64,000 nucleotides of DNA, from positions 267 through 64,266 of the forward strand of contig CAZEIH010000017.1 of NCBI GenBank assembly GCA_964512095.1, in the 5' to 3' direction. The DNA comes from an uncultured Oscillospiraceae bacterium (lineage in GTDB: Bacteria; Bacillota; Clostridia; Acetivibrionales; DTU013). Positions 8,727-64,000 of this stretch are shown piece by piece. How positions within the stretch are numbered: the stretch's first letter is position 1; each line of letters starts with the position of its first letter. Below the pieces are notes generated by a model. It worked only from the letters and a program-made list of their open reading frames with translations. It did no database searches and was not told the DNA's origin. The translations under genes and the position numbers were made by a program.

Positions 8727-11700
8727 TTACTCTGCCATACCTTTTATTATCATAGTTAGAATCTTAGCTACTTCTGCTCTTGTGGCATTGTCCTTTGGAG
8801 CAAAGTATCTTGTGTTATTCTCTCCTGCAATCCTGCCTTCGATTATGCCCGCCTGTTGCAATGCTGAAGCAGCATCAGCCGCATATGAGCTTATACTATC
8901 CTGATCTGTGAACTTCATCTTAGCACTAACCTTAGGCAATTCATACTTCATTGCCTTAGCAAAATTCCGTATCATTACAGCCATATCCTGACGTGTAATG
9001 CTAGCCTTAGGTGAGAACTGATTATTGCCCGTTCCCTTGGTGATAACATTCTCAGATGCCCAACCAACTGCTCCGGCATAGTAAACGCCATCATTCACAT
9101 CTGAAAAACCTGATGCAGAATATTTGCTCAAATCAACACCAGCTATCCTTGCAAGGAGAGTCACAAAGTCAGCCCTTGTGATATTATTGCCTGCACCGTA
9201 TTTCCCACCACCAATGCCGTTGGTAACCCCTCTTGCTGCCAGGAAGGTAACATATTCAGCTGCCCAGGCAGGAACATCAGTAAACTCCTTCTCATTGCAA
9301 CCAACTGCAATCAGTGATAAGCGGTTAGTCTTGAAGACCACTGTCTTAGTTTCCGTATTATATATGCCTCCATTCATCACGCTCATGTTTCCATTTGAAT
9401 CACCGCTGTATACAACAATGGCATTAGGATCCTCGCCAGTCTTAAGAGTATAAGGAATCCTCACGCTAACAAGACCCTTACCCAAATCAGTTACCTTTTT
9501 ACTCCCTGATGTAACTGCTAAATCATATACAGGTCTGTCACCAATCAATGTCCTGGCCTCATTTGAAAGTTTGGAAACATCAGCCTTTGTAACTTTAATC
9601 TCCACATCTGCATTGAGTTTTTTTAGGGTCTCAACAGCACCCTGATTAAATACTAATTCAACTGCTGACTTCACAGTTAAATCCTCTGCATTTTCCAGCA
9701 TTTCCATCCTAACTGATACTTTACCGCTACTATCGGTATTTATTTCGGGGTTTGTTTCACCATCACCCTGTGTAGGCAACTCAGGTACTCCTCCGCCGCC
9801 GCCAGCACCTCCACCGCCACCAGTGCCACCGCCACCGCCACCGTCACCGCCGCCGTCACCGCCACCGTCACCGTCACCGCCACCGCCACCGCCGCCGTCA
9901 CCGCCACCGTCACCGCCACCGCCACCGTCACCGCCACCGTCACCGTCACCGTCACCGCCACCGTCACCGTCACCAGAATCTGCGGTAACAGTAACATCAC
10001 ATTTTGCCGACTCATTACCAGCTTTAGCAGTAATCCATGCAGTACCCTTACTTACACCAAGTACTGCGCCATTGTTAACAGTAGCAACCGCCGGATTACT
10101 GGATTCCCATATAACCTTCTTGTTAGTTGCATTAGCAGGTGACACCGTTGCAGTAAGCTGTTTCACTTCATTAATCTTAACGACCAGGGTACTCTTATTG
10201 AGAGTTACGTCTGTTACAGGTATGTCCTTTGTATCAATTGTATTTATAATATAATCATTGGTAAAATTGTGTACACCGTTTATTGTTACAGCTACACAGT
10301 ATTCTTTACTCAAATCAAGACCAGATAGGCTTTCTTTTGTAAATACAAAGTAGCCCGGCATGTCAGAATACTCCATTAGCTCAACGGTTTTGACCGGTCT
10401 AAAATTAGTATTATTGTCCCTATCATATATGAGCGCTTTAATTATGGCAGTTTTTTCAACTTTTCCTTCTACTATAAATCCAACTAGCCCATACTCATTA
10501 CTTATTGGGTAGGAAATTTCAGCTATTGAAGATACCGGTACCATATATTTTTCAACTGTTCCCAGCATCATGGTATTGTAAATATCTTTGCCATCATATT
10601 GAGGCTTTATATAGTAATACCCGGTAGATATATCATCTTCGACCTTTGCTATAATATTATAATAATCTTCGTACTCATAACGGCCCGATGAACGGCTTAC
10701 TACAGGATTACTTACTTTTATTGTATTACCTAATAAATCCGTCATTACATATGTGAATTTAGTTGTGTCATAGGGTTCATCCTTTTTCACCATATACGCA
10801 GAGCCTTCTAACTCTATTCCGTCATTATAACCAATCTGTATTCTGGTTGACGTAGCATACAGCTTGGTATTATCTAAACAGCCAACAAATGAAGTAATCG
10901 TTTGTGTCTCTCCTAGTTCATTAGTATGCTTTATTTTAATATAATAATTTCCTTCTGCTAACTGGATATCGCTGTTTAGAGAAATAGTACCATTCAGAGA
11001 TATTGCATCCACCTTGGAGCTAATGGGCTCATTATTAATAGTAACATCTTCAGTAGCTAGACCAACAATTTTACCGCTTCTATCAGTTAATGTGACTTCA
11101 TATTGATCAGATAAACTAACCCCATAGCGTCCTTTAGACAAAAGTATGTAAAAGGGCACCTTTGTATCGGTCTTAGTGAAAAATTGTTTTCCAATGAAAC
11201 TTAGCGGTATCCCACTATCATAGGGAATGTTAAAGCTAAAAGTATCTGTATATACGCTTCTACCGTCATCATGACTATATTTCACAATATATGTACCTGA
11301 ATTAAGATCAAGAATTATTCCTGATTCATCCTTAAATTGCAGCAAATACTCCCTATCAATTGGTAAGTCTATTTCTTTCGCTAAAAGATTATCTGTAAGC
11401 TCAGAATTTTTATACAATTCAACAGTTATAGGAATACCAGGAGAATTAACAGCTTTAATTTTCAGCTCAGCTTTATTGCCATTTACCAATTCATAATCGT
11501 AAATATAAAAGTCTCTTACTATATTTAAGTATGATTGTGCACAATTGTAGTATAAGTCAAAATCAGAGCTACATTCAACATAGTAATTATCATACCCTGT
11601 GTATTTACTCTCTCCATCAAACTCTACTTTATATAAGAGGCAATTGCTAAGCTCCTGATGGTATCTGCTTTCAACAGTACTGCCAATAGTATTTCCGCTT

Positions 11701-21267: not shown

Positions 21268-21612
21268 TTATAATATCTTAGCTCCTAGGCTTACACCGCC
21301 TATTAGATGATAATGCAGGTGGAACACTGTCTGCCCTGCATCTGCTCCACAGTTGTTTATAAGCCTGTAGCCTTTATCAGCTATTCCAAGCTTGTCTGCG
21401 ATCTTCTTTGCCGCCATATGTATATCACCTATGACAGAAGCATTGTCTTGTGTAAGCTCATTAACATTAGCTATGTGATTCTTTGGTATGATAATCACAT
21501 GAACAGGTGCCACAGGGTTTATGTCGTTAAACGCCAGCACCTTGTCATCCTCATACACAATTGTGGATGGAATTTCCTTCTCAATGATTTTGCAAAAAAT
21601 ACAATCGCCCAT
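21268..21612 (-). CDS. HIT-family (histidine triad) protein
   Basis: 114 aa with CIFCKI and the HLHYHLIGG triad. Confidence 0.9.
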   Translation of the reverse strand: MGDCIFCKIIEKEIPSTIVYEDDKVLAFNDINPVAPVHVIIIPKNHIANVNELTQDNASVIGDIHMAAKKIADKLGIADKGYRLINNCGADAGQTVFHLHYHLIGGVSLGAKIL

Positions 21613-21637
21613 AACAACAACCTTCCTTCCTGTATCT

Positions 21638-21836
21638 CACTGGCCTCTCATTCACTGGCCTCTCATTCACTGGCCCTTGATTTACTGGCCCTTGATTTAC
21701 TGGCCTCTCATTCACTGGCCCTCTAATACACTGGCCTCTCATTCACTGGCCCTTGATTTACTGGCCCTCTAATACACTGGCCTCTCATTCACTGGCCTCT
21801 ATTTCACTGGACCCTGATTGCTAACTGGCCTCATGC
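21638..21836. repeat. tandem array of about 13 units of 15-16 nt (core ACTGGCC)
   Basis: The units are ACTGGCC+TCTCATTC (A), ACTGGCC+CTTGATTT (B) and ACTGGCC+CTCTAATAC (C). The order is A A B B A C A B C A A' and then degenerate units. The array fills the alaS-HIT intergenic gap. Confidence 0.9.
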
Positions 21837-21862: not shown

Positions 21863-24559
21863 TTATTTCATCTGGCTTTTAAGGGCCTCAACTGCACATC
21901 TGAGGGCTTCTTCTATCTTTGATATATCTTTGCCTCCAGCTTGGGCCATGTCCGGCCTGCCGCCGCCACCGCCGCCTGCAGCCTTCGCAGCTTCCCTGAT
22001 AATATTACCACAATGAGCGCCGCGGCCAACAGCATCCTTAGAGGCCATTGCCACAAAGCTGACCCTCCCACCAAATGCCGAAGCCAGCACCACAACACCG
22101 GTTCCAATCTTGCTACGCAGGCTCTCACAAGCATTGCGAAGAGCATCCATATCTAACTGGTCAAACCTTGCAGTAACCACCTTCACACCGCTTATATCTA
22201 TTGCTTTGCCAAGCACTTCATCAAAGGAACTATTCACCAGCTTATCCTTCAACTGTTCAATTTCCTTATGTGCAGCTTTCAGCTCTGCGCTGATAGTCTC
22301 AACCTTTCTCAGGCTGTCCTGCGGTGTTGATTTCAATGCCGATGCGATACTGTTCAGCTGCCCTTCCCTCTCATTATAATACTCAAGTGCGCCCTTGCCG
22401 GTGAGTGCCTCAATCCTTCTAACACCAGCAGCAATACCACTCTCCCCAAGTATCTTGACAAGTCCTGCCTGGGCGGTAGAGCTAAGATGAGTACCTCCGC
22501 AAAGCTCAATGCTATAATCACCTGACCTAACAACTCGGACAACACTACCGTATTTCTCTCCAAAAAGTGCCATAGCACCAAGGCTCTTGGCCTCATCCAC
22601 CGGCATTTCCCGAACATCCACCTTCATGTTCTCCAAGATTTTTGCATTAACCTCATTCTCTACAGTCTTAAGCTCATCCTTTGTCATTGCAGAGAAATGG
22701 TTAAAGTCAAATCTCAATCTATCCGGCTCTACAAGTGAACCAGCCTGGGTAACATGGTCACCAAGTACATTCCTCAATGCTTTTTGCAGCAGATGAGTGG
22801 TTGTATGGTTCCTTGCTATTGACAGTCTTCTTTCAATATCTATCGCAGCCGTAACCCCAGTGTTCTTTTCAATAATACCCTCCTCAACAACACCCATATG
22901 GAGATACAAGCCCTCAGCAGTATTCTTGCAGCCATTTACCTTAACCACACCATTTTTTGCAGTAAGGATCCCTGTATCTGCCACCTGTCCGCCACTTTCG
23001 GCATAGAATGACGTTTTATCCAGTATAACCGTTACTTCATCACCCTGCTGAGCATTCTCCGACTGTTGGCCATCAAGAATAATATATAAAATCTTTGCAT
23101 CGCAACAAAAGCTATCGTATCCCACAAATTCTGTCTTCAAACTCTTATCAATACCTGCTGCCATATCCTGTCCCCAGGCAGAAGTCTCCTTGCTCTTCAA
23201 CGCCTCCCGAGCCTTTTTCTTCTGTTCATTCATTTCAGCCCTAAAGCCAGCCTCATCAACAGTCAATCCAGCCTCCTGCGCTATTTCCCTTGTCAGATCT
23301 AGCGGGAAACCATAGGTATCATGTAGCTTAAAGGCCATACTTCCAGGCATCTCGCTCTTTGCAGAAGCCTTGAGTTCATCTATGAATTCATTGAGGATAA
23401 CAATCCCCTGGTCGATAGTTGTAGCAAATCGCTCTTCTTCTATTCTAATAACCTTGCAGATATAATCTTCCTTGTCAGCCAGCTCGGGATAGGCATGCTT
23501 GGATTCCTGAATAACCACCCTTGCCACATCATGTAGGAACGAACCTTCGATACCAAGGAGCCTACCATGACGTGCAGCCCTTCTGAGTATCCTTCTAAGG
23601 ACATAGCCCCTGCCTTCATTAGATGGCAGTATTCCATCTGAAACCATCATCGTTGTACTTCTGATATGGTCGGTAATTACCCTGATGGAAACATCAACCT
23701 TATCGCCACTACCGCAGCTTACTTCCTTATCACCTGATGGCGTTCCGCCCGCCCCGTTCTTTGTAGCACCATACTCGACGCCAGCCTTATTACAGACATA
23801 GTCCAATATATATCTAATAGTATCCACTTCAAAAAGGTTTTCCACGTCCTGCATAATAACTGCTAGACGTTCCAGTCCCATACCAGTATCAATATTCTTC
23901 TTCTCCAGCTTCGAATAAGTCCCGTCCTCTTCCTTATTGAACTGTGTAAAAACCAGATTCCAGAATTCAATAAATCTATCGCATTCGCAACCAACCTTGC
24001 AGTCAGGTGAGCCGCAGCCTCTCTCCGGCCCTCTGTCATAATAAATCTCCGAGCATGGACCGCAAGGGCCTGTACCATGTTCCCAAAAATTGTCCGCCTT
24101 GCCCATCCTAACGATATGATCCGTTGAAAGGCCTATATCCTTGTTCCATATTTCAAATGCTTCATCATCTTCTTCATAAATAGAAGCGTAAAGCCTGTCT
24201 TCAGGTATCCCCATATCCTTTGTGACAAACTCCCACGCCCACGGGATAATCTCCTTCTTAAAATAGTCACCAAACGAAAAATTGCCGAGCATCTCAAAGA
24301 ATGTGCCATGCCGCGCTGTCTTTCCGACGTTTTCGATATCCGGGGTTCGGATGCACTTTTGGCAGGTGGTAATCCTGTTATGTGGCGGCTTCTCCACACC
24401 TGTAAAATATGGCTTTAGAGGAGTCATTCCCGCATTTATTAGCAAAATGCTTGGGTCATTGTGGGGCACCAGTGAAAAGCTCGGCATACGTAGGTGCTCC
24501 TTACCTTCAAAGAAACTCAAAAATCGCTCTCTTATTTCATTTAGTCCCAGTTTATTCAT
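21863..24559 (-). CDS. alaS: alanine--tRNA ligase
   Basis: The true N-terminus MNKLGLNEIRERFLSFFEGKEH starts at ATG 24559. Editing-domain motifs are HTTTHLL and CGGTH. The C-terminal DHHA1 carries GGGGGGRPDMAQAGG. Confidence 0.95.
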   Translation of the reverse strand: MNKLGLNEIRERFLSFFEGKEHLRMPSFSLVPHNDPSILLINAGMTPLKPYFTGVEKPPHNRITTCQKCIRTPDIENVGKTARHGTFFEMLGNFSFGDYFKKEIIPWAWEFVTKDMGIPEDRLYASIYEEDDEAFEIWNKDIGLSTDHIVRMGKADNFWEHGTGPCGPCSEIYYDRGPERGCGSPDCKVGCECDRFIEFWNLVFTQFNKEEDGTYSKLEKKNIDTGMGLERLAVIMQDVENLFEVDTIRYILDYVCNKAGVEYGATKNGAGGTPSGDKEVSCGSGDKVDVSIRVITDHIRSTTMMVSDGILPSNEGRGYVLRRILRRAARHGRLLGIEGSFLHDVARVVIQESKHAYPELADKEDYICKVIRIEEERFATTIDQGIVILNEFIDELKASAKSEMPGSMAFKLHDTYGFPLDLTREIAQEAGLTVDEAGFRAEMNEQKKKAREALKSKETSAWGQDMAAGIDKSLKTEFVGYDSFCCDAKILYIILDGQQSENAQQGDEVTVILDKTSFYAESGGQVADTGILTAKNGVVKVNGCKNTAEGLYLHMGVVEEGIIEKNTGVTAAIDIERRLSIARNHTTTHLLQKALRNVLGDHVTQAGSLVEPDRLRFDFNHFSAMTKDELKTVENEVNAKILENMKVDVREMPVDEAKSLGAMALFGEKYGSVVRVVRSGDYSIELCGGTHLSSTAQAGLVKILGESGIAAGVRRIEALTGKGALEYYNEREGQLNSIASALKSTPQDSLRKVETISAELKAAHKEIEQLKDKLVNSSFDEVLGKAIDISGVKVVTARFDQLDMDALRNACESLRSKIGTGVVVLASAFGGRVSFVAMASKDAVGRGAHCGNIIREAAKAAGGGGGGRPDMAQAGGKDISKIEEALRCAVEALKSQMK

Positions 24560-52010: not shown

Positions 52011-52465
52011 AATAAACGCCTAAGGCGGTAATACATCCTCATCACCATCTTTCTGACAGGTATAATTAGAAGCCATAATCCTACTAAACATCTTAAAAGC
52101 ATATTATTGCAATCAATAATATGCTTTCCCCTTCTTATCCTGGAAACAGTAGCAATCAACTGGTGAGATACAAGAGGCCCTTCTACCCACTGCTGCGCGT
52201 CACCTATTATATAAAAGCTACTCTCTTCCTTTTTCATTACTCTGTGCATTACATATTCGCCTGTCAATCGTTTAATTAGAACGATATCTCCCCTTTTCAC
52301 AGAATCGTAGGAATTGCTTGCAAGCTCTACACTGTCCTTACCTTCACGTAGAAATGGATACATACTCATCCCGGTTACCGTTATCCAGGCCTTTTCACCA
52401 TTATTCAGTATCTCAGCGACCAAACTAAACAGTTCTGCCGCCTTCACCTTTACAAGCTCATGCAT
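52007..52465 (-). CDS. S24/S26-type serine peptidase-like protein, C-terminal TM
   Basis: TGMSMYPFL (GxSMxP Ser box), GDIVLIKR (Lys box) and the hydrophobic tail LLRCLVGLWLLIIPV. Overlaps the upstream gene by 16 nt. Confidence 0.65.
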   Translation of the reverse strand: MHELVKVKAAELFSLVAEILNNGEKAWITVTGMSMYPFLREGKDSVELASNSYDSVKRGDIVLIKRLTGEYVMHRVMKKEESSFYIIGDAQQWVEGPLVSHQLIATVSRIRRGKHIIDCNNMLLRCLVGLWLLIIPVRKMVMRMYYRLRRLF

Positions 52466-53346
52466 TTATACACCAACTCCACAGCTTCATAGTCAGGGCG
52501 GCATTGTAGCAGATAAACGGGAACTGTTTCTACCAGCTTTTCAATGACCTTAATAGTTGCCTCCATTAATCCTCCATCAAAGTATGGGAGAAAGCACCGA
52601 GGCATCAACATTTCCAGCGCTCTGGCCATATCGAGTCTTTCAATCCTATTCTCAGATGACCGGGTCAGCATCACAACACCCTCCAATGGTACCTTCAAAT
52701 TAGCAAATATATCTGTTGAACCACTCCAGGGCGTACCACACAGCATCGGCTTGCCCTCAAGGAAACGAATAACCGGTCTATCGTCATTCAAAAGTGTAAC
52801 TCTGTCTCCGTACCTTTCCTTCCACAGCCCTGTATGTGTTGACTTGCCTGTACCTGAAGGAGCAGATACAATAACACCCTTACCGTCTATTGCAAATGAG
52901 GAGGAATGTACAGTAATGCTATCCATACTAATCATTGCGTTTCTGTATGCTATACCTGTGAGCTGAAATGTGTGGTAATCATTCCATTTGACACGTCTAT
53001 TATCACTTATGGGATAAGTCAAATCAGACTCTATGTATCTAATGGATATATTCCTCCAAAAATAATCTGCTTCAAGAATGGTGTCAAACTCCAGATTTCT
53101 TGTACTTGTCATAGCTATGAAAAAACCGTTGTCAGGAGCTTTTTTTCTATACCATCTTGATGTTTCATCAAGTATCAGATCACCATCAGGAATAACAATG
53201 TTATCCACCTTTTCCGATTTAACAATCAAATCGACAGCTGAAGCCGACGTATCCGATGCTTCCATTTTGAATATGGCTCCTCTTTCTTCAAACAGATCGT
53301 TGGATCCTATAAATTCGACAATAATACCAGCAATGTTGTAAAGCAA
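52450..53346 (-). CDS. HPr-kinase-C-terminal-domain-like P-loop protein
   Basis: VHSSSFAIDGKGVIVSAPSGTGKSTHTGLW resembles the HprK C-domain motif (H-A-S…G…G-x-S-G-x-GKS). TTG start at 53346, 9 nt after AGGAG. Confidence 0.65.
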   Translation of the reverse strand: MLYNIAGIIVEFIGSNDLFEERGAIFKMEASDTSASAVDLIVKSEKVDNIVIPDGDLILDETSRWYRKKAPDNGFFIAMTSTRNLEFDTILEADYFWRNISIRYIESDLTYPISDNRRVKWNDYHTFQLTGIAYRNAMISMDSITVHSSSFAIDGKGVIVSAPSGTGKSTHTGLWKERYGDRVTLLNDDRPVIRFLEGKPMLCGTPWSGSTDIFANLKVPLEGVVMLTRSSENRIERLDMARALEMLMPRCFLPYFDGGLMEATIKVIEKLVETVPVYLLQCRPDYEAVELVYKCMSL

Positions 53347-53427
53347 ATTTATTCACTCCTGACAATTACATAATATAATAGCTTAGAGAAATTCCCTTAT
53401 GCAGGCTGAGCCTTCCTTTTGGTTCAG

Positions 53428-53524
53428 TCAATTCGCATCGCTCAGGGAGTCAGGTGGAGACTGAACTCCGCTTGACCAAGGAAGTTAATTATTGAGTTCA
53501 GCGTCTCCTGAAGACATAGATAAA
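53428..53524 (-). repeat. full-length copy of the dispersed repeat (inverted relative to 57323 and 59445)
   Basis: TCAATTCGCATCGCTCAGGGAGTCAGGTGGAGACTGAACTCCGCTTGACC…CCTGAAGACATAGATAAA. About 85% identical to the reverse complement of 57323-57425. Confidence 0.85.
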
Positions 53525-53528
53525 GGGC

Positions 53529-53560
53529 AAAATAAAAGGGATTGTACAATTAACAACCCC
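53529..53560 (-). terminator. rho-independent terminator directly after the second precursor gene
   Basis: Minus RNA reads GGGGUUGU-UAAUUGU-ACAAUCCC-UUUUAUUUU. The G·U pair would be an A·C mismatch on the plus strand, so the orientation is minus. Confidence 0.7.
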
Positions 53561-53581
53561 CCATTAAAGACATACATAATA

Positions 53582-53710
53582 TTAGGAATTCAAACCTACC
53601 CAGGTATTATACTCTGCAGAGCAAGCCCCATCATAGTATGTACATGTACAAACTCTCTCATCTGCGCGTAGTTCTACACAGTTTATTTCGGGAGCAACAT
53701 ATTTTTTCAT
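53582..53710 (-). CDS. putative RiPP precursor peptide A2 (42 aa)
   Basis: Not in the ORF track. AGAGGTG lies 7 nt before the ATG. Sequence: MKKYVAPEINCVELRADERVCTCTYYDGACSAEYNTWVGLNS. Confidence 0.75.
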   Translation of the reverse strand: MKKYVAPEINCVELRADERVCTCTYYDGACSAEYNTWVGLNS

Positions 53711-53746
53711 TGTTTTTCACCTCTTTCCTCTTCAAGTTTGTATTTC

Positions 53747-53893
53747 TCACGAATCGCTAAGGGCTATAAGACCAACCATTGTGGGAATGTTTTGAACCTC
53801 CCATGTAGTACAACTTCCTGTGCAATTGCTGGCTATACGCTCCTCAACTCTTAGCTCTACACATGATAGTGTAGGTGTAACATATGCTTTCAT
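53747..53893 (-). CDS. putative RiPP precursor peptide A1 (48 aa)
   Basis: Not in the ORF track. AGGAGGG lies 7 nt before the ATG, 30 nt after the rSAM stop. Sequence: MKAYVTPTLSCVELRVEERIASNCTGSCTTWEVQNIPTMVGLIALSDS. Confidence 0.75.
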   Translation of the reverse strand: MKAYVTPTLSCVELRVEERIASNCTGSCTTWEVQNIPTMVGLIALSDS

Positions 53894-53923
53894 CTGGAAC
53901 CCTCCTTTCCATAATTTTTAAAA

Positions 53924-55051
53924 TCAATATTCTACATCCAGCTCCTTGCGGGCTTTTGCAGTCTCGCAAAGATATGGGGCTGGTTTAGTGAAGCTGCCTG
54001 TTTCAACCTTCAGTCTTGCAGGACAAGCCATGCATTTTGAGCGAAGGTCGCAATTATCACATTCCTTGCAGGAAGGTACATCCAGGCAGGATTTCTTTAG
54101 CAGTTCCCAAGATTTCGAAAATCCAAGACTCTTTACGTCGAACCAGGGATCTGTCAATAAGCCGCAAGGCGTCAATCTGCCATCCCAGGTCAACCAAAAG
54201 GCACCCTTCCCCGCCGTACATCTAAAGGCGGACGAAGCAGTCATATGCGGTATCTCTCCCACTAACTCATTAAGCTGGCCATCTGTCATAACATCATTAT
54301 TTACTGATAGCTCAGCCCTCTTCCTTGTTTCTTCCCGGTCCATGAGCTTTAATCTGAAGTCCTGAATCATTTTCTCATACCTTGCCAGCTCCAGAGGACC
54401 AAGCCTGCAGTTTTCAGGATCAGTGCCACAGCCCTCTCTCCTTGGCGCAACATAGTTGACTATGCCCAGTTGCCCTCCAAGACTGTCTGCTAAAGAATAT
54501 ATCTCCTCAAATTCACTACTATTTTCATCTATAACAGTGGTCTTTAGCTCTACCTTAATATTCTCAGCTAATAGCAGCTTTATTGCATTTACCGTATTGT
54601 GGAAGCCCTCCGGGTGTCCTGTGACTCTACCATAGGTCTCTGGACTTGCCCCATAAAGTGTAATGCTCACCTTTGATGGTGGCCTCTTCCCCAATCTGTG
54701 TGCCTTTTCAGCGTCTATGAGACCTCCGTTAGTATAGAGGGTAATACTCATTCCCATTTCTGAAAGAGCCTCGTATATCTCAAAGAAGTCCTTTCTCATG
54801 AATATCTCTCCACCGGTTAATGTCATAAAAATGAGCCCTGCATCTCTGGCCTGCCTTCCCAATGAAATCCACTGTGATGCTGTCAGCTCGTTTTCAAGGA
54901 ATGCTTTATCATCTGGCACACTGCATACGTAGCACATTTTGCAATGAAAGCTACATCTGGCTGTCAATTCAAAAAAACCTGATGCAGGATTCCCTACAAT
55001 AATTGACCTGTCAATTAAATTTTTGTATAATTGAGCCCATGACATACTCAT
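53924..55051 (-). CDS. radical SAM / SPASM-domain peptide-modifying enzyme
   Basis: CSFHCKMC (CxxxCxxC) near the N-terminus. The Cys-rich C-terminus is FRCTAGKGAF…TPCGLL…CLDVPSCKECDNCDLRSKCMACPA…YLCE. Overlaps the PqqD-like gene by 4 nt. Confidence 0.85.
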   Translation of the reverse strand: MSMSWAQLYKNLIDRSIIVGNPASGFFELTARCSFHCKMCYVCSVPDDKAFLENELTASQWISLGRQARDAGLIFMTLTGGEIFMRKDFFEIYEALSEMGMSITLYTNGGLIDAEKAHRLGKRPPSKVSITLYGASPETYGRVTGHPEGFHNTVNAIKLLLAENIKVELKTTVIDENSSEFEEIYSLADSLGGQLGIVNYVAPRREGCGTDPENCRLGPLELARYEKMIQDFRLKLMDREETRKRAELSVNNDVMTDGQLNELVGEIPHMTASSAFRCTAGKGAFWLTWDGRLTPCGLLTDPWFDVKSLGFSKSWELLKKSCLDVPSCKECDNCDLRSKCMACPARLKVETGSFTKPAPYLCETAKARKELDVEY

Positions 55052-55335
55052 TGTTGGTCCCCGCCATCTGCTGTTTCCAGTAGATTTTTCTGATGCAGTG
55101 TATCTAAAAACCTGATAACATCATTTTTTGCAGTTGCCTCGTCGATATCATATTCTTCAAGCAAAGCTGATACTAATTGCTGAGTGTTGGCATCACTTTC
55201 CATCAGGCGCCATAAAATCGCACCACTTTCACTTAGCGTCATTATTCCGTTGAATTCTACAACTCTTGCCCCCAATGGAACAACTACCCATTGCTTGGCA
55301 ATCTCCCGTAACATGAAACCGCTTTTGACCTTCAT
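55048..55335 (-). CDS. PqqD-family protein (RiPP recognition element)
   Basis: 95 aa. FMLREIAKQWVVVPLG…FNGIMTLSESGAILWRLM…LVSALLEEYDID…AKNDVIRFLDTL matches the PqqD-like winged-helix pattern. Confidence 0.8.
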   Translation of the reverse strand: MKVKSGFMLREIAKQWVVVPLGARVVEFNGIMTLSESGAILWRLMESDANTQQLVSALLEEYDIDEATAKNDVIRFLDTLHQKNLLETADGGDQQ

Positions 55336-55432
55336 CTACAAACCCCTTTATGATATGTTGTAATTTTATCTATTTAGTAGCCTTTTTATGTAATATTATA
55401 CAGTATCATCTTTTAAATGAATTTTCATGTCT

Positions 55433-55461
55433 ATATTATAATTATTTCATCTGTAAGTCAA
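55433..55461 (-). promoter_or_regulatory. candidate promoter for the pqqD-rSAM-precursor unit
   Basis: Minus strand reads TTGACT, a 17-nt spacer, then TAATAT (a TATAAT also occurs at 15 nt). It lies in a 222-nt AT-rich gap. Confidence 0.4.
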
Positions 55462-55557
55462 TACCAATTTTAATATTTCCAGTAATACTTTTGCTTTTAT
55501 TTTATTTTTTTACTTTTTATGTGGCATAGTCGCTTTTTTCATGGCACAATTACTTTA

Positions 55558-57322: not shown

Positions 57323-57425
57323 ATTTTATCTATGTCTTCAGAAGACGTTGACCTCTGAATTAATTAACTTCCTTGGTCAGATGGAGTTCAGTCTCCACCT
57401 GACTCCCTGAGCGAAGTGAATTGAT
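57323..57425 (+). repeat. full-length copy of the dispersed ~103-nt repeat
   Basis: 97/103 identical to 59445-59547. Contains the GTCTTCAGAAGAC palindrome, TTAATTAA and the hairpin GGTCAGATGGAG-TTCAGT-CTCCACCTGAC. Confidence 0.9.
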
Positions 57426-59360
57426 ATGCCTTCTTGTTTTTATGAAACCTTTGTTCTCTTGTATTGCTTTGTATGATCTAGTTGCCTGTTCGCTTTCATA
57501 TAAATCCATATCCTGTATCTCAGGTATAAAATAATCCTTCGTGTATCTGTATGTCGGTACAAGCTTAGCCATGGTTTCTCTGAGCATTTCATCGTTCTCC
57601 ATGGAATTTTCCAACGCCTTAATACACATGATAACTTCTTGGAAGCTTATATCATGCTGTTTGCCGATAAATATCTTTTCATGGGCAGTTTTCTCCAGTC
57701 CCTCCTCTGCCATCAGTAGCTCCTCGTAGAGCTTCTCTCCAGGCCGCAAGCCTGAGTATTCTATCTTTATATCCACATACGGTTCAAAGCCTGACAGGCT
57801 AATAAGATCCCGGGCTAAATCTGCAATTTTAACAGGCTCGCCCATGTCAAGCACAAATACCTCACCGCCCTCCCCCAGCGCTCCTGCCTGAATCACCAGC
57901 TGAGCAGCCTCAGGTATGGTCATGAAGTAACGTATAATATCAGGGTGAGTGACTGTGACAGGGCCCCCCTGAATAATTTGCTTCTTGAATAGCGGTATGA
58001 CACTACCATTACTACCTAGAACATTACCAAAGCGGACAGCTGCGAATTTGGTTTCACTCATTCTATTCATGGATTGGACAATAATCTCAGCCAGACGCTT
58101 TGATGCGCCCATTATATTAGTAGGGTTTACTGCCTTGTCGGTAGACACAAGTATGAATTTCTTTGTTCCAAAGTCTATCGCCCGCCTACAGGTATTTAGC
58201 GTACCGAATACATTGTTCTTTATAGCTTCCGAAGGATTTCCCTCCATCAATGGCACATGCTTGTGGGCTGCCGCATGGAATACAACTCCCGGCCTATAGC
58301 GCTCAAATATCTCCCTGAGCCTTCCACGGTCCCTACAGGAGCCTATGAGGACTTCCAAGTCAAGCTTATCCTTGTACGTATAGACCAGCTCATTTTGTAA
58401 ATCGTAAGCGTTGTTTTCGTAAATATCAAATATAACCAGCTTTTTTGGCTCAAATTTAGCAATCTGCCTGCAAAGCTCTGAGCCTATGGATCCCCCACCG
58501 CCTGTCACTAACACTACTTCATCCTTGAGGTATCCGGATATTTCGTCCATATTGAGAGTAATCTCGTCACGTCCCAAAAGATCTTCTATATCTACATCCC
58601 TAAGCTGATTGGCTGTCAATTCCCCATCAATTATATCCATCATGTTGGGAAGTGTTTTTAGCTTGCATTTGGTATCCTTGCTTATCCTTAACAAATCAGC
58701 AACATCCCGCTTTGAAGCCGATGGTATGGCAACTACTATCTCATCTATTTTGTACTGCTTTGCTATCTCCCTGATTCTCTCTCTTCCTGATACCACCGGA
58801 ATATTATTAATACAGGTACCATGCTTTGTTATATCATCATCTACCACTACAACTGGTACCAGGTTCATATCGTTATGGTTTTTGAACTCCTTTATTAACA
58901 TAGAGCCTGCACTTCCAGCACCAACCATCATAACCCTGCTGGGCTTACGGTTGTTCCTTTGCAAATAAAGCCTTGCTCTGCGAAGATATCTGCATCCAAT
59001 CCTAACAGAACCAATAAGCATACATAAAAATATCCATGAAATTATGTGTATGGATATTGGGTATGTCCTTCCTGTCAACTGGCTTATTAGTAATCCAAGC
59101 CCTGTAGCTGTGATGGTTCCAACTGTAATCTGCATCATTTCCTCTATGCTTGCATATTCCCAAAGGCTTCTATAGAGTCCGAAAAAATAGAATACAACAA
59201 TTTGAACAATGCTAATCATCAGTGCATTTCTTAAGAAGTTATCAAAGTATTTCTGCGGTATGGCTATATCAAATTTTATGAGCAATGCAAGGCATAGTGA
59301 AATATTTACTATTAAAGCATCTGCTATGACAAGTACAATTTTTCTTAATTTAACTGACAT
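57360..59360 (-). CDS. PglF/CapD-type membrane-anchored UDP-sugar 4,6-dehydratase
   Basis: Four N-terminal TM helices, VLVTGGGGSIGSEL and FGNVLGSNGSVIP (Polysacc_synt_2). ATG 59360 follows GGGAGG. The last 22 codons lie inside the repeat. Confidence 0.85.
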   Translation of the reverse strand: MSVKLRKIVLVIADALIVNISLCLALLIKFDIAIPQKYFDNFLRNALMISIVQIVVFYFFGLYRSLWEYASIEEMMQITVGTITATGLGLLISQLTGRTYPISIHIISWIFLCMLIGSVRIGCRYLRRARLYLQRNNRKPSRVMMVGAGSAGSMLIKEFKNHNDMNLVPVVVVDDDITKHGTCINNIPVVSGRERIREIAKQYKIDEIVVAIPSASKRDVADLLRISKDTKCKLKTLPNMMDIIDGELTANQLRDVDIEDLLGRDEITLNMDEISGYLKDEVVLVTGGGGSIGSELCRQIAKFEPKKLVIFDIYENNAYDLQNELVYTYKDKLDLEVLIGSCRDRGRLREIFERYRPGVVFHAAAHKHVPLMEGNPSEAIKNNVFGTLNTCRRAIDFGTKKFILVSTDKAVNPTNIMGASKRLAEIIVQSMNRMSETKFAAVRFGNVLGSNGSVIPLFKKQIIQGGPVTVTHPDIIRYFMTIPEAAQLVIQAGALGEGGEVFVLDMGEPVKIADLARDLISLSGFEPYVDIKIEYSGLRPGEKLYEELLMAEEGLEKTAHEKIFIGKQHDISFQEVIMCIKALENSMENDEMLRETMAKLVPTYRYTKDYFIPEIQDMDLYESEQATRSYKAIQENKGFIKTRRHINSLRSGSQVETELHLTKEVN

Positions 59361-59444
59361 CTCATTTTCCTCCCGTGTTTTGCGCAGCAATCTCTACACT
59401 GGCCTATTCATGTACGTATAACACTAATTTATATATTCAAAATC

Positions 59445-59547
59445 ATTTTATCTATGTCTTCAGAAGACGCCGACCTCTGAATTAATTAACTTCCTTGGTC
59501 AGGTGGAGTTCAGTCTCCACCTGACCTCCTGAGCGAAGCGAATTGAT
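59445..59547 (+). repeat. full-length copy of the dispersed ~103-nt repeat
   Basis: Contains a perfect 12-bp hairpin GGTCAGGTGGAG-TTCAGT-CTCCACCTGACC. It sits in the loaP-to-capD leader. Confidence 0.9.
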
Positions 59548-59632
59548 TTAGTCCAAAAAAGGCATGGTTTTACCAATTGTATATATATTGCTCCTATACA
59601 ATGGCATCACTAGCCTTTGACCTCCTACTCTC

Positions 59633-59655
59633 ATACCGGGCCGAAACACCGATAT
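59633..59655 (-). promoter_or_regulatory. hairpin with conserved 9-nt loop (copy 1) in the polysaccharide-operon leader
   Basis: Plus strand reads ATACCGG-GCCGAAACA-CCGATAT and can be extended to 11 bp. On minus-strand RNA the stem is fully paired with one G·U. Confidence 0.45.
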
Positions 59656-59732
59656 GGGACTTGGATTTTGTTTAAAGCCTTTACAACGATAGCCCCGGGT
59701 TATCGATAGATGTGAGTAATTCATCAGTCCTT

Positions 59733-60257
59733 CTATATTGGTTTCAGGATAGAAATCCCTAGATCTACTGTCCTTTCTTCTCCAAGGAAATCCAGCCGTA
59801 TCTTAGCTCTTTCTTTGCGATGGTCTATACTAATAATTACCCCTTCAAGGGAAAAGAGAGGACCGTCTACCACTTGAACTCTCCCATTCTCTATCAGCAC
59901 ATTCGAAAAACCAATTTCTTCGTTATTAGAAATCAAGCTGGACAATACAGCCATTTCTCGGCGGTCTATACTTGCCACTGAATTTCCTGTCTTTAGTAAT
60001 CTAATTACATTTGGTATGTTCTTTAAACCATAATACGTATCTGGAGTTATATCACCATTAATTAAAACATAGCCGGGAAACAAGACCCTTGTTTCTACCC
60101 TCCATATGCCGCCCTTCCTGACCCGCAGCTTTCTTTTGGGTACCACTACGGTATAGTCATCACCCAATCTATACCTGACTCTCTCCTTTGCCCTCTCCTC
60201 TTCACCTGTAACAACAAACACACCATGCCATTCATCTAATCGTGAATCATACAACAT
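59733..60257 (-). CDS. loaP: NusG-paralogue transcription antiterminator (LoaP-like)
   Basis: 174 aa. NGN-like N-terminus (WHGVFVVTGEEERAKERV…LFPGYVLI) and a KOW-like C-terminus (VQVVDGPLFSLEGVIISIDHRKERAKIRL). It is the first gene of a polysaccharide locus. Confidence 0.7.
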   Translation of the reverse strand: MLYDSRLDEWHGVFVVTGEEERAKERVRYRLGDDYTVVVPKRKLRVRKGGIWRVETRVLFPGYVLINGDITPDTYYGLKNIPNVIRLLKTGNSVASIDRREMAVLSSLISNNEEIGFSNVLIENGRVQVVDGPLFSLEGVIISIDHRKERAKIRLDFLGEERTVDLGISILKPI

Positions 60258-60293
60258 TATTAAAACCCCTTAGTATCCTTAGCAACAATACCC

Positions 60294-60322
60294 ATTTTAT
60301 AACATTTAGCGAGCAAAGTCAA
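60294..60322 (-). promoter_or_regulatory. sigma-A-type promoter for loaP
   Basis: Minus strand reads TTGACT (60322-60317), a 17-nt spacer, then TAAAAT (60299-60294). Confidence 0.5.
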
Positions 60323-60410
60323 TGTTTTATATTGATTTATTCCAAATTTCTTGTAACTATGGTACTTTGAAGCATTGTGGAAGACTTATGTATCGTCGCA
60401 GGGCCATGTA

Positions 60411-60645
60411 GGGAGACGGTTCGGTTCGGGGACGGTTCTCACCTTTGGAGACGGTTCCCACCTTTGGGGACAGTTCGTTCGGGGCCAGTTCGTTCGGGGC
60501 CAGTTCGTTCGGGGACAGTTCTCACCTTTGGGACAGTTCGGTTCGGGGACGGTTCTCACCTTTGGGACGGTTCGGCTCGGGGACGGTTCGTTCGGGGACA
60601 GTTCTCACCTTTGGGGACAGTTCGTTCGGGGACGATTCTCACTTT
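60411..60645. repeat. tandem array of 14 units of two types (15 nt and 19 nt)
   Basis: 8 units are GGGGAC(A/G)GTTCGTTC-like and 6 are GGGGAC(A/G)GTTCTCACCTTT-like, and the two types are interleaved. The last unit overlaps the stop codon of the AI-2E transporter gene. Confidence 0.9.
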
Positions 60646-61691
60646 GCGATTGCCTCAACTGTTTTATTAATCAACACCCTGATTATAGCCATTACAGGTA
60701 CGGCTAGGAGCATACCTGTGATTCCAAAAAACTCTCCGCCCACAAGGACTGCAAATATTGTGGCAACAGGATGAAGTCCCATCCGTCCTTCTATCATTTT
60801 GGGTGAAATAAAACTGTTATCGATTTGCTGCACAGTAAGAAAAACCACGATGGTCCAAACCGCCTTCATTGGCGATATTGTTAGGGCAACAGCAACAGCA
60901 GGTATTGCTCCAATGTATGGACCAAAGTAAGGAATCACATTGGCCAATCCACCGAGCATACCAAGAACTAGAGGATATCGCATACCAACTATAATAAGTC
61001 CGATAGTTTCCAGTATACCTATAATAAATGAAATAACCAGCTGCCCCTGAATAAATCCGGCAAGAATCCTGTTAATCTCCTTGAATACAAAAGTTAGGCC
61101 ATTCCTCCAGTGTCTTGGGAACAACAGTAAAGTATACTCTTTAAACCTTTCCCCATCTTTTATAGTGTAATATGTAATAACTAGCGCAATAGTTATGTCT
61201 ACAATGATTTTCACCATATCAACAACAAGGTTTAGACCATCCTCCAGCAGTCTAACAAGAAATGACTGCAACTTGTCCATAACATTTGTTATCTGATCAA
61301 ATATAGCATCTTTAACCTGCTCTGACCAGTTAGTAGAATCGATAGTAGAGAGTAGACCATTTAATGTGTTTTCATAGCTTAACATAAGCTGTGGTAACGT
61401 TTCCATCAGTTCTCGGATGTTTGTAGCCAGTTCAGGAATCAGGTATATACCCACAGCCACCAACAGCGCCAATATAAACAAGTAAACAACCAATATAGAT
61501 ATACCCACCGGTATCCTTTTGGCAATCAGCCTGTCTGACAAAGGCTTTACTATGTATACCAGCATTACCGTGACAAAAAACGGTGATAGGACTCTTACTA
61601 TTTTACCCCAATATGTATATATGAAAAAAACTGATGCTGTTATCATCAAAATCAAGATAAGGTAGAATAATAGCTTCTTATATCGTGCCAC
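60639..61691 (-). CDS. AI-2E family transporter (PerM/UPF0118)
   Basis: 350 aa with about 8 TM helices and GGLANVIPYFGPYIGAIPA. GTG start lies 6 nt after AGGAGG. Confidence 0.8.
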   Translation of the reverse strand: MARYKKLLFYLILILMITASVFFIYTYWGKIVRVLSPFFVTVMLVYIVKPLSDRLIAKRIPVGISILVVYLFILALLVAVGIYLIPELATNIRELMETLPQLMLSYENTLNGLLSTIDSTNWSEQVKDAIFDQITNVMDKLQSFLVRLLEDGLNLVVDMVKIIVDITIALVITYYTIKDGERFKEYTLLLFPRHWRNGLTFVFKEINRILAGFIQGQLVISFIIGILETIGLIIVGMRYPLVLGMLGGLANVIPYFGPYIGAIPAVAVALTISPMKAVWTIVVFLTVQQIDNSFISPKMIEGRMGLHPVATIFAVLVGGEFFGITGMLLAVPVMAIIRVLINKTVEAIAK

Positions 61692-62619: not shown

Positions 62620-63040
62620 AAGGCGGCCTCCGCAAATCAAGCTAAAAGCTCGCTAATCATCCATTATTATTTCTTGCTTCAACAAAAATAATACAATGGA
62701 AAATACATGTAATACACAAAGAAGTTAAAAGAGGTGAAAAGAAGATAAATTTAACAAATCTAGACAATACGCCTCCATTTGTATAGAATGATACATGGGG
62801 ATGGATCCTTTGCTTTATTTTGACCCATTTCAACAAATTTCGCACATATTTTGAAATTGCATGGAATGGAATGAGCTAAACTAAACTGAACTGAACAAAA
62901 CTGAACTGAACAAACATAATACAGAATATGGTATTGCATTGTTTTATCACATTGCCATAATAATGTACTATGTTACATAATTAGGATACATAAACATTAT
63001 ATAGAATTTAAACATATATCATCAGGGAGGCAAAATTAGA

Positions 63041-64000
63041 ATGAAAAATATATTTAAGAGGCTTGGAGTACACATTCCGGAGATTCTACTGCCTGTGGAT
63101 GGCACAGATTTAACCAAATGGGCAGTCATAGCCTGCGATCAATACACCTCACAGCCGGAATACTGGGATAAGGTAAGTGAAGGGGTTGGCCAAAACCCTT
63201 CTACGCTTAAACTGACCTTTCCTGAGATTTATCTGAAGGATGACGATAAGGACAAAAGAATTGAAAGTATTAATAAGACTATGGAGGAATATCTTATCCA
63301 GGGCACTCTTGAACCGCAGGATCCGGGGTTCATTCTTGTAGACCGCAGTACACCCCATACATCCTCAAGGAAGGGGCTAATTATTGCACTTGATCTGGAA
63401 TGCTACGACTACAGACCCGGTGCTCAAACCCTCATACGGGCAACTGAAGGGACGGTTCTTGACCGTATACCGCCAAGAGTAAGAATTCGTGAAAATGCAC
63501 CAATTGAGCTGCCTCATATTATGGTACTGATTGATGACCCAGATAAAACAGTAATAGAAGGCCTTTATGCTAAAGCTGAAGCTGGAGGCTTTAAGAAGCT
63601 ATATGATTTTGAATTAATGCAAGGCGGTGGCCATATAAAGGGATGGAAGGTCGATGACAAAGAAAGCCTGTCAATGGTAGCCAAGGCCTTCAACAAACTA
63701 GAGCGCGGTGGCTGCCCCTGCGGTAGCGATACCATTGGGGACGATACCATTGGGGACAGTTCTCACCTGCCCTGTAACCTTCTCTTTGCAGTTGGCGATG
63801 GAAATCATTCTCTTGCTTCCGCAAAGGCCCACTGGGAAAATGTCAAGGCTAGCCTTATTAAAGATACTAATGAACCAATTCCAGAACATCCTGCAAGATA
63901 CGCTTTGGTAGAGCTAGTAAATGTACACGATGATGGCTTGGTTTTTGAACCAATTCATAGAGTTCTTTTTAATATAAATGCAACAACAATCCTCGAAATG
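63041..64000 (+). CDS. DUF1015-family protein (3'-truncated by the window end)
   Basis: GGGAGG lies 10 nt before ATG 63041, and the frame is open to the window end (320 codons). Missing from the track because it has no stop. Motifs CDQYTSQPEYW and AVGDGNHSLASAKAHWE are typical of DUF1015. Confidence 0.8.
   Translation, partial: MKNIFKRLGVHIPEILLPVDGTDLTKWAVIACDQYTSQPEYWDKVSEGVGQNPSTLKLTFPEIYLKDDDKDKRIESINKTMEEYLIQGTLEPQDPGFILVDRSTPHTSSRKGLIIALDLECYDYRPGAQTLIRATEGTVLDRIPPRVRIRENAPIELPHIMVLIDDPDKTVIEGLYAKAEAGGFKKLYDFELMQGGGHIKGWKVDDKESLSMVAKAFNKLERGGCPCGSDTIGDDTIGDSSHLPCNLLFAVGDGNHSLASAKAHWENVKASLIKDTNEPIPEHPARYALVELVNVHDDGLVFEPIHRVLFNINATTILEM
63727..63768 (+). repeat. 15-nt tandem units of the GGGGAC family inside the DUF1015 CDS
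   Basis: CGATACCATTGGGGA occurs twice and is followed by CAGTTCTCACCT. The last part is identical to the long unit of the 60411-60645 array. Confidence 0.8.

Follow-up and report, generated by a model that had tools for sequence, protein, structure and literature searches.

Between the gene for an AI-2E family transporter and loaP, the first gene of a polysaccharide cluster, a GC-rich tandem array occupies 235 nt of a 64-kb stretch of DNA from an uncultured Oscillospiraceae bacterium. The whole stretch is hereinafter designated the window. The genes flanking the array are all on the minus strand. The features on which the analysis turns are listed below, one per line.

60411..60645, core on the plus strand, antisense to the flanking genes: tandem array, defined by unit parsing, Tandem Repeats Finder (TRF) and core count
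60428..60446, plus strand: long unit GGGGACGGTTCTCACCTTT, copy 1, proposed recombination or slippage partner of the 14-unit and 7-unit alleles
60545..60563, plus strand: long unit GGGGACGGTTCTCACCTTT, copy 2, identical to copy 1 (60545 - 60428 = 117 nt)
61691->60639, minus strand: AI-2E family transporter gene (Pfam PF01594), with the last codon AAG and the TGA (60641->60639) inside the last array unit
60322->60294, minus strand: sigma-70-like site TTGACT-17-TAAAAT, 10 of 12 positions matching, conserved in the second allele (contig L002)
60257->59733, minus strand: loaP, NusG-paralog antiterminator and first gene of the polysaccharide cluster (NCBIfam NF033641, antiterm_LoaP)
59390->57360, minus strand: CapD-like Polysacc_synt_2 gene, from the domain search
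63727..63768, plus strand: long-unit copy in the DUF1015 coding sequence, with GGGGACAGTTCTCACCT at 63752-63768 coding for GDSSHL and a 15-nt tandem duplication ahead of it at 63727-63756
63677-63790: DUF1015 hypervariable loop, corresponding to 7637-7825 in contig L152 and 7676-7885 in contig L155

LoaP scores 176 bits against NF033641 (cut-off 125), and its homologues carry the name antiterminator LoaP. The TTGACT-17-TAAAAT site is the only good promoter-like site ahead of loaP. The array ends 89 nt upstream of its −35 box, in agreement with the distance of about 90 nt in the original prediction. No intrinsic terminator was found between the AI-2E stop codon and loaP. At its other end, the array runs into the AI-2E gene, and the prediction that the last unit supplies the end of that gene and its TGA proved correct. 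Specifically, the transporter ends in ...VEAIAK* in the window versus ...VEAIV* in array-free relatives.

The units were parsed on the plus strand. The array contains 14 head-to-tail units, interleaved and free of spacers, of which eight are short (one of 17 nt followed by seven of 15 nt) and six are long (five of 19 nt and one of 18 nt). Units of both types carry the core GGGGAC(A/G)GTTC. The short type is GGGGACRGTTCGTTC, with the variants GGTTCGGTTC and GGCTC, and the long type is GGGGACRGTTCTCACCTTT; after the core, short units run on with GTTC (or its variants GGTTC and GGCTC), and long units run on with TCACCTTT. The core GGGGACRGTTC is exact in seven of the 14 units and has one mismatch in the other seven, with degenerate forms such as GGGAGAC, GGAGAC, GGGGCC and GGGAC. 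The predicted composition of eight plus six spacer-free units is thus confirmed, with the qualification that seven of the units are degenerate. A search that allowed one mismatch at most gave 16 matches to the core in the window, of which the array accounts for 14; 0.68 were expected, and no shuffle out of 100 reached 16. TRF reports nested periods of 15, 19, 34, 49, 83 and 117 nt. The GC content of the array is 0.62 versus 0.33–0.45 in the flanks. The array contains no inverted repeats, and no local stem around a unit exceeds 2–3 bp.

Exact-protein look-ups for further alleles found only two contigs, L001 and L002. L001 is identical to the window over 2,266 nt and is possibly from the same sample, so it is not counted as independent. 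L002, from an anaerobic-digester metagenome, has flanks 98.1% identical to the window and carries seven units versus 14. On its minus strand, L002 contains the equivalents of window units 1–5, one long unit, and unit 14. The difference between the two alleles is 117 nt, which is exactly the spacing of the identical long units at 60428 and 60545, and this points to misalignment of identical units, either by unequal recombination or by slippage. The contig has the label k127, which suggests a k-mer size of 127 nt; the window array contains no exact internal repeat of about that length, so the shorter allele is probably real and not an assembly collapse. A metagenome scan for the long-unit junction returned no additional array alleles. 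The comparison of unit number between strains, which had been proposed as a check of the original prediction, thus supports an array that is length-variable between strains. The predicted slippage-prone variability stands. The phase or rheostat role proposed along with it is not supported by the position of the array, which lies neither within a coding sequence nor between the −35 and −10 boxes, as a contingency repeat would.

Species with LoaP 83–85% identical to that of the window have no tandem repeat at the AI-2E–loaP position, and two further relatives reached via DUF1015 are also array-free there. In the LoaP relatives, the gap between the two genes is filled either by a PqqD / radical-SAM / ScmC cluster, which resembles a cluster for ribosomally synthesized and post-translationally modified peptides, together with an S24 peptidase gene, or by a Uma2 gene. 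The absence of the array from the relatives indicates that it is young and lineage-specific. The AI-2E–loaP junction is a rearrangement hot spot. The PqqD / radical-SAM / ScmC genes, which sit between AI-2E and loaP in relatives, are found about 5–8 kb further along in the window (52173-55484, with 66–70% nucleotide identity to 614-3805 of L003), and contig L019 carries the Uma2 gene at the junction.

The core GGGGACRGTTC of the array units corresponds to GGGGACGGTTCT, the core of a repeat family that is dispersed in intergenic DNA of many metagenome-assembled genomes (MAGs) and isolates. Two scans define this family. Scan A searched one genome per species for two cores 4–8 nt apart and matched at least 117 loci; the repeats that it matched in actinomycetes of high GC content are coding (GDGS). 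In the 84 scan-A loci with GC content below 0.60, the base after the core is T in 70–74% versus 27% in the background, the R position is G in 89–91%, and the six bases ahead of the core are A-rich. The search left both the base after the core and the R position free, and the biases at these free positions are beyond what ascertainment alone explains. Scan B, an independent scan of metagenomes, required only the inverted pair GGGGACGGTTCT-N6-36-AGAACCGTCCCC and found at least 120 loci versus about 0.1 expected by chance by our own estimate; the counts of both scans are lower bounds. The family loci are mostly intergenic and may point either way relative to the flanking genes: 14 contexts are convergent, 9 divergent and 24 co-directional.

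The scan-B loci define the anatomy of the family. Each core lies between a locus-specific sequence of 7–9 nt (X) and its reverse complement, and two X-core units face each other to form a palindrome of 60–140 nt overall. Further full direct copies of X plus core are located just outside the palindrome in 17% of the loci, while partial "stutter" copies, mirrored on both arms, are present in many more. An exact stem of 6 bp or more surrounds 41% of the cores in the metagenome set and 25% in the genome set, compared with 3–4% in permutations, and more than 170 distinct stems were counted. Within one MAG the same X is found again at several loci, and other MAGs have up to four core clusters in 8 kb. 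The partial copies break off at scattered points, over a range of 3 to 28 nt. This scatter argues for array growth by ordinary slippage, and on the same observation the idea that one enzyme cut site sets the unit ends was rejected.

Several other identities for the family were considered and discarded. A phage origin was rejected, since only four viral contigs match, one of them with the family anatomy, while the reversed-pattern control gave 11 matches in viral contigs, all of them coding repeats without this anatomy. A classical miniature inverted-repeat transposable element with target-site duplications was rejected because compact elements have flanks that are inverted and not direct, and a terminator role was rejected because convergent contexts are not enriched. 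The core was also inspected as a sigma-54 site, a promoter for an extracytoplasmic-function sigma factor, a LexA box, a CsrA sponge, a DNA uptake sequence of the DUS type, and a tRNA or tmRNA fragment, and each of these ideas was dropped after inspection of the sequence. No Rfam family matches the window or 19 family loci at gathering thresholds, and a permissive Rfam scan of 59300-61000 gave nothing relevant. A literature search for the core as a text string returned primer matches only.

The breadth of the family across phyla should be read with caution. Contigs L124 and L136, which are from one co-assembly and are binned as a Syntrophomonadaceae MAG and a Bacteroides MAG, respectively, contain the same repeat-bearing sequence, probably because of a binning error, and small MAG contigs may carry a wrong taxonomic assignment. 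Many family loci are located at contig ends, and many of the RayT-like transposase genes described below are on contigs of about 1 kb. Together with a scaffold gap that falls within a repeat array in a sister species (below), the contig ends indicate that these repeats break short-read assemblies.

The family is associated with a transposase. An all-against-all BLAST comparison of open reading frames (ORFs) in the 84 loci gave no dominant neighbour family (at most 8 of 84), and the link emerged only with a targeted search using HUH/Y motifs and hidden Markov models (HMMs). In repetitive extragenic palindrome (REP) systems, REP sequences are associated with RAYT (REP-associated tyrosine transposase) genes. 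The RAYT-like "TIRYT" genes of Di Nocera et al. (PMC3733652) are flanked by inverted repeats that share GGGGWSAS; repeats of this type also occur as dispersed dimers and clusters, and tandem reiteration of REPs is described in the same work. Most TIRYT genes belong to TnpA_REP subclass 2.1, which has a Y1 domain followed by a C-terminal helix-turn-helix (HTH), and the consensus of the subclass 2.1 flanks is GGGG[AT][CG]A[CG] (Quentin et al., PMC6006769). In the window array, only the four GGGGACAG units fit this 8-nt consensus exactly.

Using an HMM built from 60 RayT-like proteins, we found eight RayT-like genes in 1.47 Mb of loci chosen by the motif only, versus none in 0.31 Mb of other loci. 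The core is within 180 nt of a gene end in six of the eight and is present on both sides in four. The RayT-like proteins match Pfam PF01797 (Y1_Tnp), have weak C-terminal HTH signals, and score 59–81 bits against NCBIfam NF047646 (REP-associated tyrosine transposase; cut-off 80). As a test of the predicted association, three cultured Clostridia isolates were picked by protein homology alone, and the flanks of their RayT-like genes were then inspected. In all three, Thermotalea, Maledivibacter and Anaerosalibacter, the gene is flanked by inverted core-bearing hairpins. Specifically, Thermotalea metallivorans has gcgtgacaGGGGACGGTTCTttgtcacgc before the gene and an inverted copy 8 nt past its stop codon, Maledivibacter halophilus has the same arrangement, and the core in the Anaerosalibacter flank is the variant GGGGACGGTCCC. 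The core family is therefore the REP-type partner of a RayT clade, in a REPtron arrangement.

The window array has counterparts elsewhere in the family. Hairpin-less direct arrays of the same core are present in six other Clostridia MAGs (L022, L024, L064, L091, L114 and L115), and the string GGGGACGGTTCTCACCTTTTTACC, a 19–24 nt representative of the long-unit subfamily, is found in intergenic DNA of the unrelated MAGs L022 and L095. Within the window, the core search located the array and one copy inside a coding sequence. The latter copy, in the DUF1015 gene at 63727-63768, had been noticed in the original prediction and is real: its last 17 nt (GGGGACAGTTCTCACCT) match the opening 17 nt of a long unit exactly. 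It falls in a hypervariable surface-loop region, which in some orthologues has about 10 residues and in others up to about 60. The long unit in this loop codes for GD(G/S)SH(L/I) in the window, L152 and L155, and the L155 loop is filled with nucleotide tandem repeats coding for SHISHISH, SDGPDN and SDTSDTSDASDASD. A search of the PDB by sequence identified no relative of DUF1015.

The sister contigs carry the long unit elsewhere. L152 has three further copies within 2 kb. Upstream of its AI-2E start codon there is an array of the long unit, in which a scaffold gap of 100 N (L152 5672-5771) separates two copies of GGGGACGGTTCTCACCT. L155 has a single degenerate long-unit copy upstream of AI-2E, at a position that is empty in the window. 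In the clade of the window, the 19-nt long unit thus occurs at several different positions within 3 kb, and the presence of the same element at different places in sister species is the behaviour of a dispersed repeat. Two observations on the same region are recorded here. A near-copy of the core, (G/A)GGGACGGTTCTTGACC, is located at 63448-63458 in the window and at 7408 in L152 and 7447 in L155; it encodes the invariant EGTVLDR motif of DUF1015, indicating that the core can arise from coding constraint alone. In L155, a group II intron reverse transcriptase gene (RVT_1 and GIIM) follows DUF1015 directly at 8758-10155; the window has no such gene.

On the basis of these sequence comparisons, the array is probably (with a probability of about 0.6) a lineage-specific, hairpin-less, head-to-tail cluster of cores of the RayT-associated (HUH/Y1) REP-like family. 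One copy of the core would have landed, or been copied, at the AI-2E stop codon after the split from the relatives, and would then have been amplified by slipped-strand mispairing or by unequal recombination between identical units. The array would not be a dedicated regulator of loaP. If transcribed, it would give the AI-2E mRNA a C-rich 3' tail without structure, and it may act at most as a variable spacer or insulator ahead of the loaP promoter. Overall, a neutral or incidental array is the favoured explanation, and the two regulatory explanations considered below are doubtful even when taken together.

Several observations weigh against the assignment to the REP-like family. The window units lack a defining feature of REPs, as they are not palindromic. 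The R position is A in four of the seven exact-core units, in contrast to G in about 90% of the family, and the short units end in GTTCG, not GTTCT. The HMM search found no RayT-like gene in the 64-kb window. Only two alleles, of 14 and 7 units, were found. The long unit codes for GDGSHL in the DUF1015 loop, so the array could be seeded from a coding segment. Finally, an element with an unchanged core is kept at the orthologous intergenic position in two pairs of distant species, at the following coordinates.

L101 1674-1729 and L132 6164-6330: first pair of orthologous elements
L040 7153-7225 and L062 3663-3751: second pair of orthologous elements

The proteins flanking these elements are 55–69% identical. 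Within each pair the core is identical, while the stems and the tandem copy number differ, and the ATG of the downstream gene directly follows the last copy in the Omnitrophota pair. This retention suggests that the family may not be purely selfish.

The retained core is also part of the case for a different explanation, that the array is a set of sites for a core-recognising protein, either a host regulator or the HTH of a RayT-like protein, and that the resulting nucleoprotein block tunes loaP and the polysaccharide cluster by unit number. Its 14 copies of an 11–12 bp core conserved across phyla are regularly spaced, the RayT-like proteins of the clade have a C-terminal HTH-like tail (as also described in PMC6006769), the occurrence of the family in both orientations relative to genes fits a role at the DNA level, and the unit number differs between strains. 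An array of protein-binding sites acting on loaP and polysaccharide expression was among the possibilities in the original prediction; conservation lends it no support, because the related species with 83–85% identical LoaP lack the array although loaP and the gene cluster are conserved. In addition, the array lies upstream of the promoter without overlapping it, the counts of convergent, divergent and co-directional loci (14, 9 and 24) show no preference for promoter regions, and no binding protein is known. We consider this explanation unlikely. A bolder version, in which GGGGACGGTTCT is recognised and bound by the RayT-like enzyme or by its HTH tail, arrays without hairpins are domesticated cis-elements whose effect scales with copy number, and the 7-unit and 14-unit alleles are heritable settings of loaP transcription and polysaccharide level, is a long shot. 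It is also conceivable that units are added and removed on single-stranded DNA by the RayT-like enzyme itself, a process that would at the same time create new peptide loops in proteins, DUF1015 among them.

The array could instead be an ordinary local minisatellite that arose by ectopic copying of the DUF1015 segment GGGGACGGTTCTCACCTT (coding for GDGSHL) from 3 kb away, in which case the match to a REP-like family would be coincidental. The 17–19 nt identity with the DUF1015 loop is kept in three species, "GDxS" is widespread in this loop among orthologues, the window units are free of hairpins, and the window has other 15-nt-period arrays built of unrelated units, so this genome makes such arrays anyway. 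Against a purely local origin stand the occurrence of GGGGACGGTTCTCACCTTTTTACC, at 19–24 nt, in intergenic DNA of the unrelated L022 and L095 and in L152 upstream of AI-2E, and the hairpin-less core arrays of the six other Clostridia MAGs; such an origin is similarly unlikely.

The RNA of the array was examined on both strands. For the sense (minus-strand) RNA, the minimum free energy is −44.6 kcal/mol versus −65.2 ± 4.3 kcal/mol for shuffled sequences (z = +4.8), and all 200 shuffles are more structured; the RNA of the opposite strand has z = +1.1. This result, together with the lack of inverted repeats, refutes the structured 3' untranslated region that the original prediction had offered as a further possibility. 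Over its 235 nt, the sense RNA contains 35.7% C and 24.3% G, while the rest of that strand contains 16% C. A Rho utilization (rut) site is a long, untranslated RNA segment that is rich in C, poor in G and unstructured. The array RNA follows a stop codon and is C-rich and unstructured, but its G is not depleted, and these properties follow automatically from the composition of the repeat.

As an untranslated C-rich 3' tail, such an RNA might load Rho or soak up 30S subunits via six AAAGGUGAG motifs, and so stop read-through into loaP, leaving that gene reliant on its own promoter. The start of the array exactly at the stop codon and the lack of an intrinsic terminator before loaP, combined with the C-rich unstructured RNA, mean that a Rho-loading or insulating role deserves some weight. 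On the other hand, missing structure is automatic for direct repeats of skewed composition, G is not depleted, Bacillota depend little on Rho (PMC12691694), the family occurs in both orientations relative to transcription, and the relatives manage without the array. Such a role is quite improbable.

A direct role of the array in LoaP action also finds no structural basis. The known LoaP determinants are a small hairpin of the UNCG type and a terminator in the transcribed leader, downstream of the promoter (PMC12691694). The array lies upstream of the only promoter-like site and is hairpin-free on both strands. A better candidate for a LoaP-related hairpin or terminator module is a repeated hairpin in the loaP-to-capD leader, which as a whole is structured (z = −2.3). 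This element, a 30-nt perfect hairpin GGTCAGGTGGAG-ACTGAA-CTCCACCTGACC followed by a second small hairpin, has three copies in the polysaccharide cluster, versus none expected by chance, at the following positions.

59497-59526, minus strand: copy in the loaP-to-capD leader
57375-57404, minus strand: copy at the 3' end of the capD-like gene
53448-53477, plus strand: copy near 53.4 kb

A small plus-strand repeat protein, for example the 97-aa ORF on which an automatic gene caller placed a gene in L001, is very improbable: all three plus-strand frames are indeed open through the array (60375-60707, 60377-60670 and 60445-60774), as originally predicted, but this is an artefact of the periodicity, a Pfam search of these ORFs gave no significant match, the 19-nt units shift the frame inside the array although the 117-nt loss keeps it, and the ORFs run antisense into AI-2E with no plus-strand promoter-like site ahead of them.

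Compared with known systems, the family is most readily placed beside REPs, the REP-containing bacterial interspersed mosaic elements (BIMEs) and RAYTs (PMC3733652, PMC6006769, PMC8266576). It has a short, conserved, GC-rich tag, is intergenic and often located right past stop codons, and occurs as singletons, inverted dimers and tandem clusters, with a Y1/HUH gene flanked by the repeats in six motif-chosen loci and three isolates. Unlike REPs and BIMEs, the family has its conserved 12 nt in the hairpin loop or at the outer end and not in a GTAG foot, and unlike TIRYT or subclass 2.1 repeats, its core exceeds the published 8-nt consensus in length and mostly shows G at a position that is A in the consensus. 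The window array itself, consisting of cores with 4–8 nt spacers and no palindrome, is not a REP structurally.

Similarities to other repeats are more limited. The mycobacterial interspersed repetitive units (MIRUs), which are variable-number tandem repeats, resemble the array in that they are intercistronic between genes on the same strand, overlap the upstream stop codon, and vary in copy number between strains. MIRU units are 46–101 bp and are proposed to contain small coupled ORFs, whereas the array has units of 15–19 nt and a separate downstream promoter. The palindromic elements of Rickettsia are dispersed repeats found in frame inside proteins, as is the core copy in the variable surface loop of DUF1015; they are palindromes of 100–150 bp, whereas the DUF1015 copy is only the 17–19 nt core. 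The STAR elements of Staphylococcus aureus (PMC3532100) are likewise GC-rich, strain-variable, intergenic direct repeats with locus-specific spacers in an AT-rich member of the Bacillota. Their sequence is T(G/A/T)TGTTG(G/T)GGCCC(C/A), their spacers are at least 40 bp versus 4–8 nt here, and no transposase is linked to them, so STAR is an analogy only. Borg tandem repeats (PMC9879509) are also fast-evolving, form independently in genic and intergenic sites, and have arrays flanked by partial repeats; they are perfect and A-rich and share no core, whereas the window units are imperfect and built on a core found across genomes.

Other than the array and the duplication in DUF1015, the window contains two arrays with a period of about 15 nt, making four in 64 kb (at 21637, 60411, 62879 and 63727). 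The second intergenic tandem array, at 21637-21819, has about 12 interleaved units of 15–16 nt in three subtypes (TCACTGGCCTCTCAT, TTACTGGCCCTTGAT and ACACTGGCCCTCTAAT), and its unit is unrelated to that at 60411. Its neighbours are two minus-strand genes, one of 947 aa with its stop at 21863 and one of 114 aa that starts at 21612, and the array lies between them. On the minus strand its main unit reads ATG-AGA-GGC-CAG-TGA, a five-codon mini-ORF with an internal GAGAGG. A look-up of the protein adjoining this array, made for a strain comparison, gave no match. At 62879-62914, in the divergent region between a PRC-barrel gene and DUF1015, the repeat AACAAAACTGAACTG has a 15-nt period and 2.4 copies.

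For this locus, the idea of a dedicated loaP switch is unsupported, while assignment of the array to the REP-like family covers its sequence, its variation between strains, and its absence from relatives. For the family, the comparisons picture a RayT-associated repeat in Clostridia, Omnitrophota, Syntrophia and other uncultured groups, with a 12-nt loop core, stems that vary from locus to locus, inverted pairs with mirrored stutter, hairpin-less arrays, and a copy that is translated in a protein loop. This anatomy and breadth exceed the published 8-nt consensus, which was derived from a few genomes. Because the repeats break short-read assemblies and create spurious ORFs, their recognition aids annotation and binning. 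If it is true that the RayT-like protein binds or cuts the core, the three cultured hosts would provide a tractable system for studying REP-type spread outside Proteobacteria.

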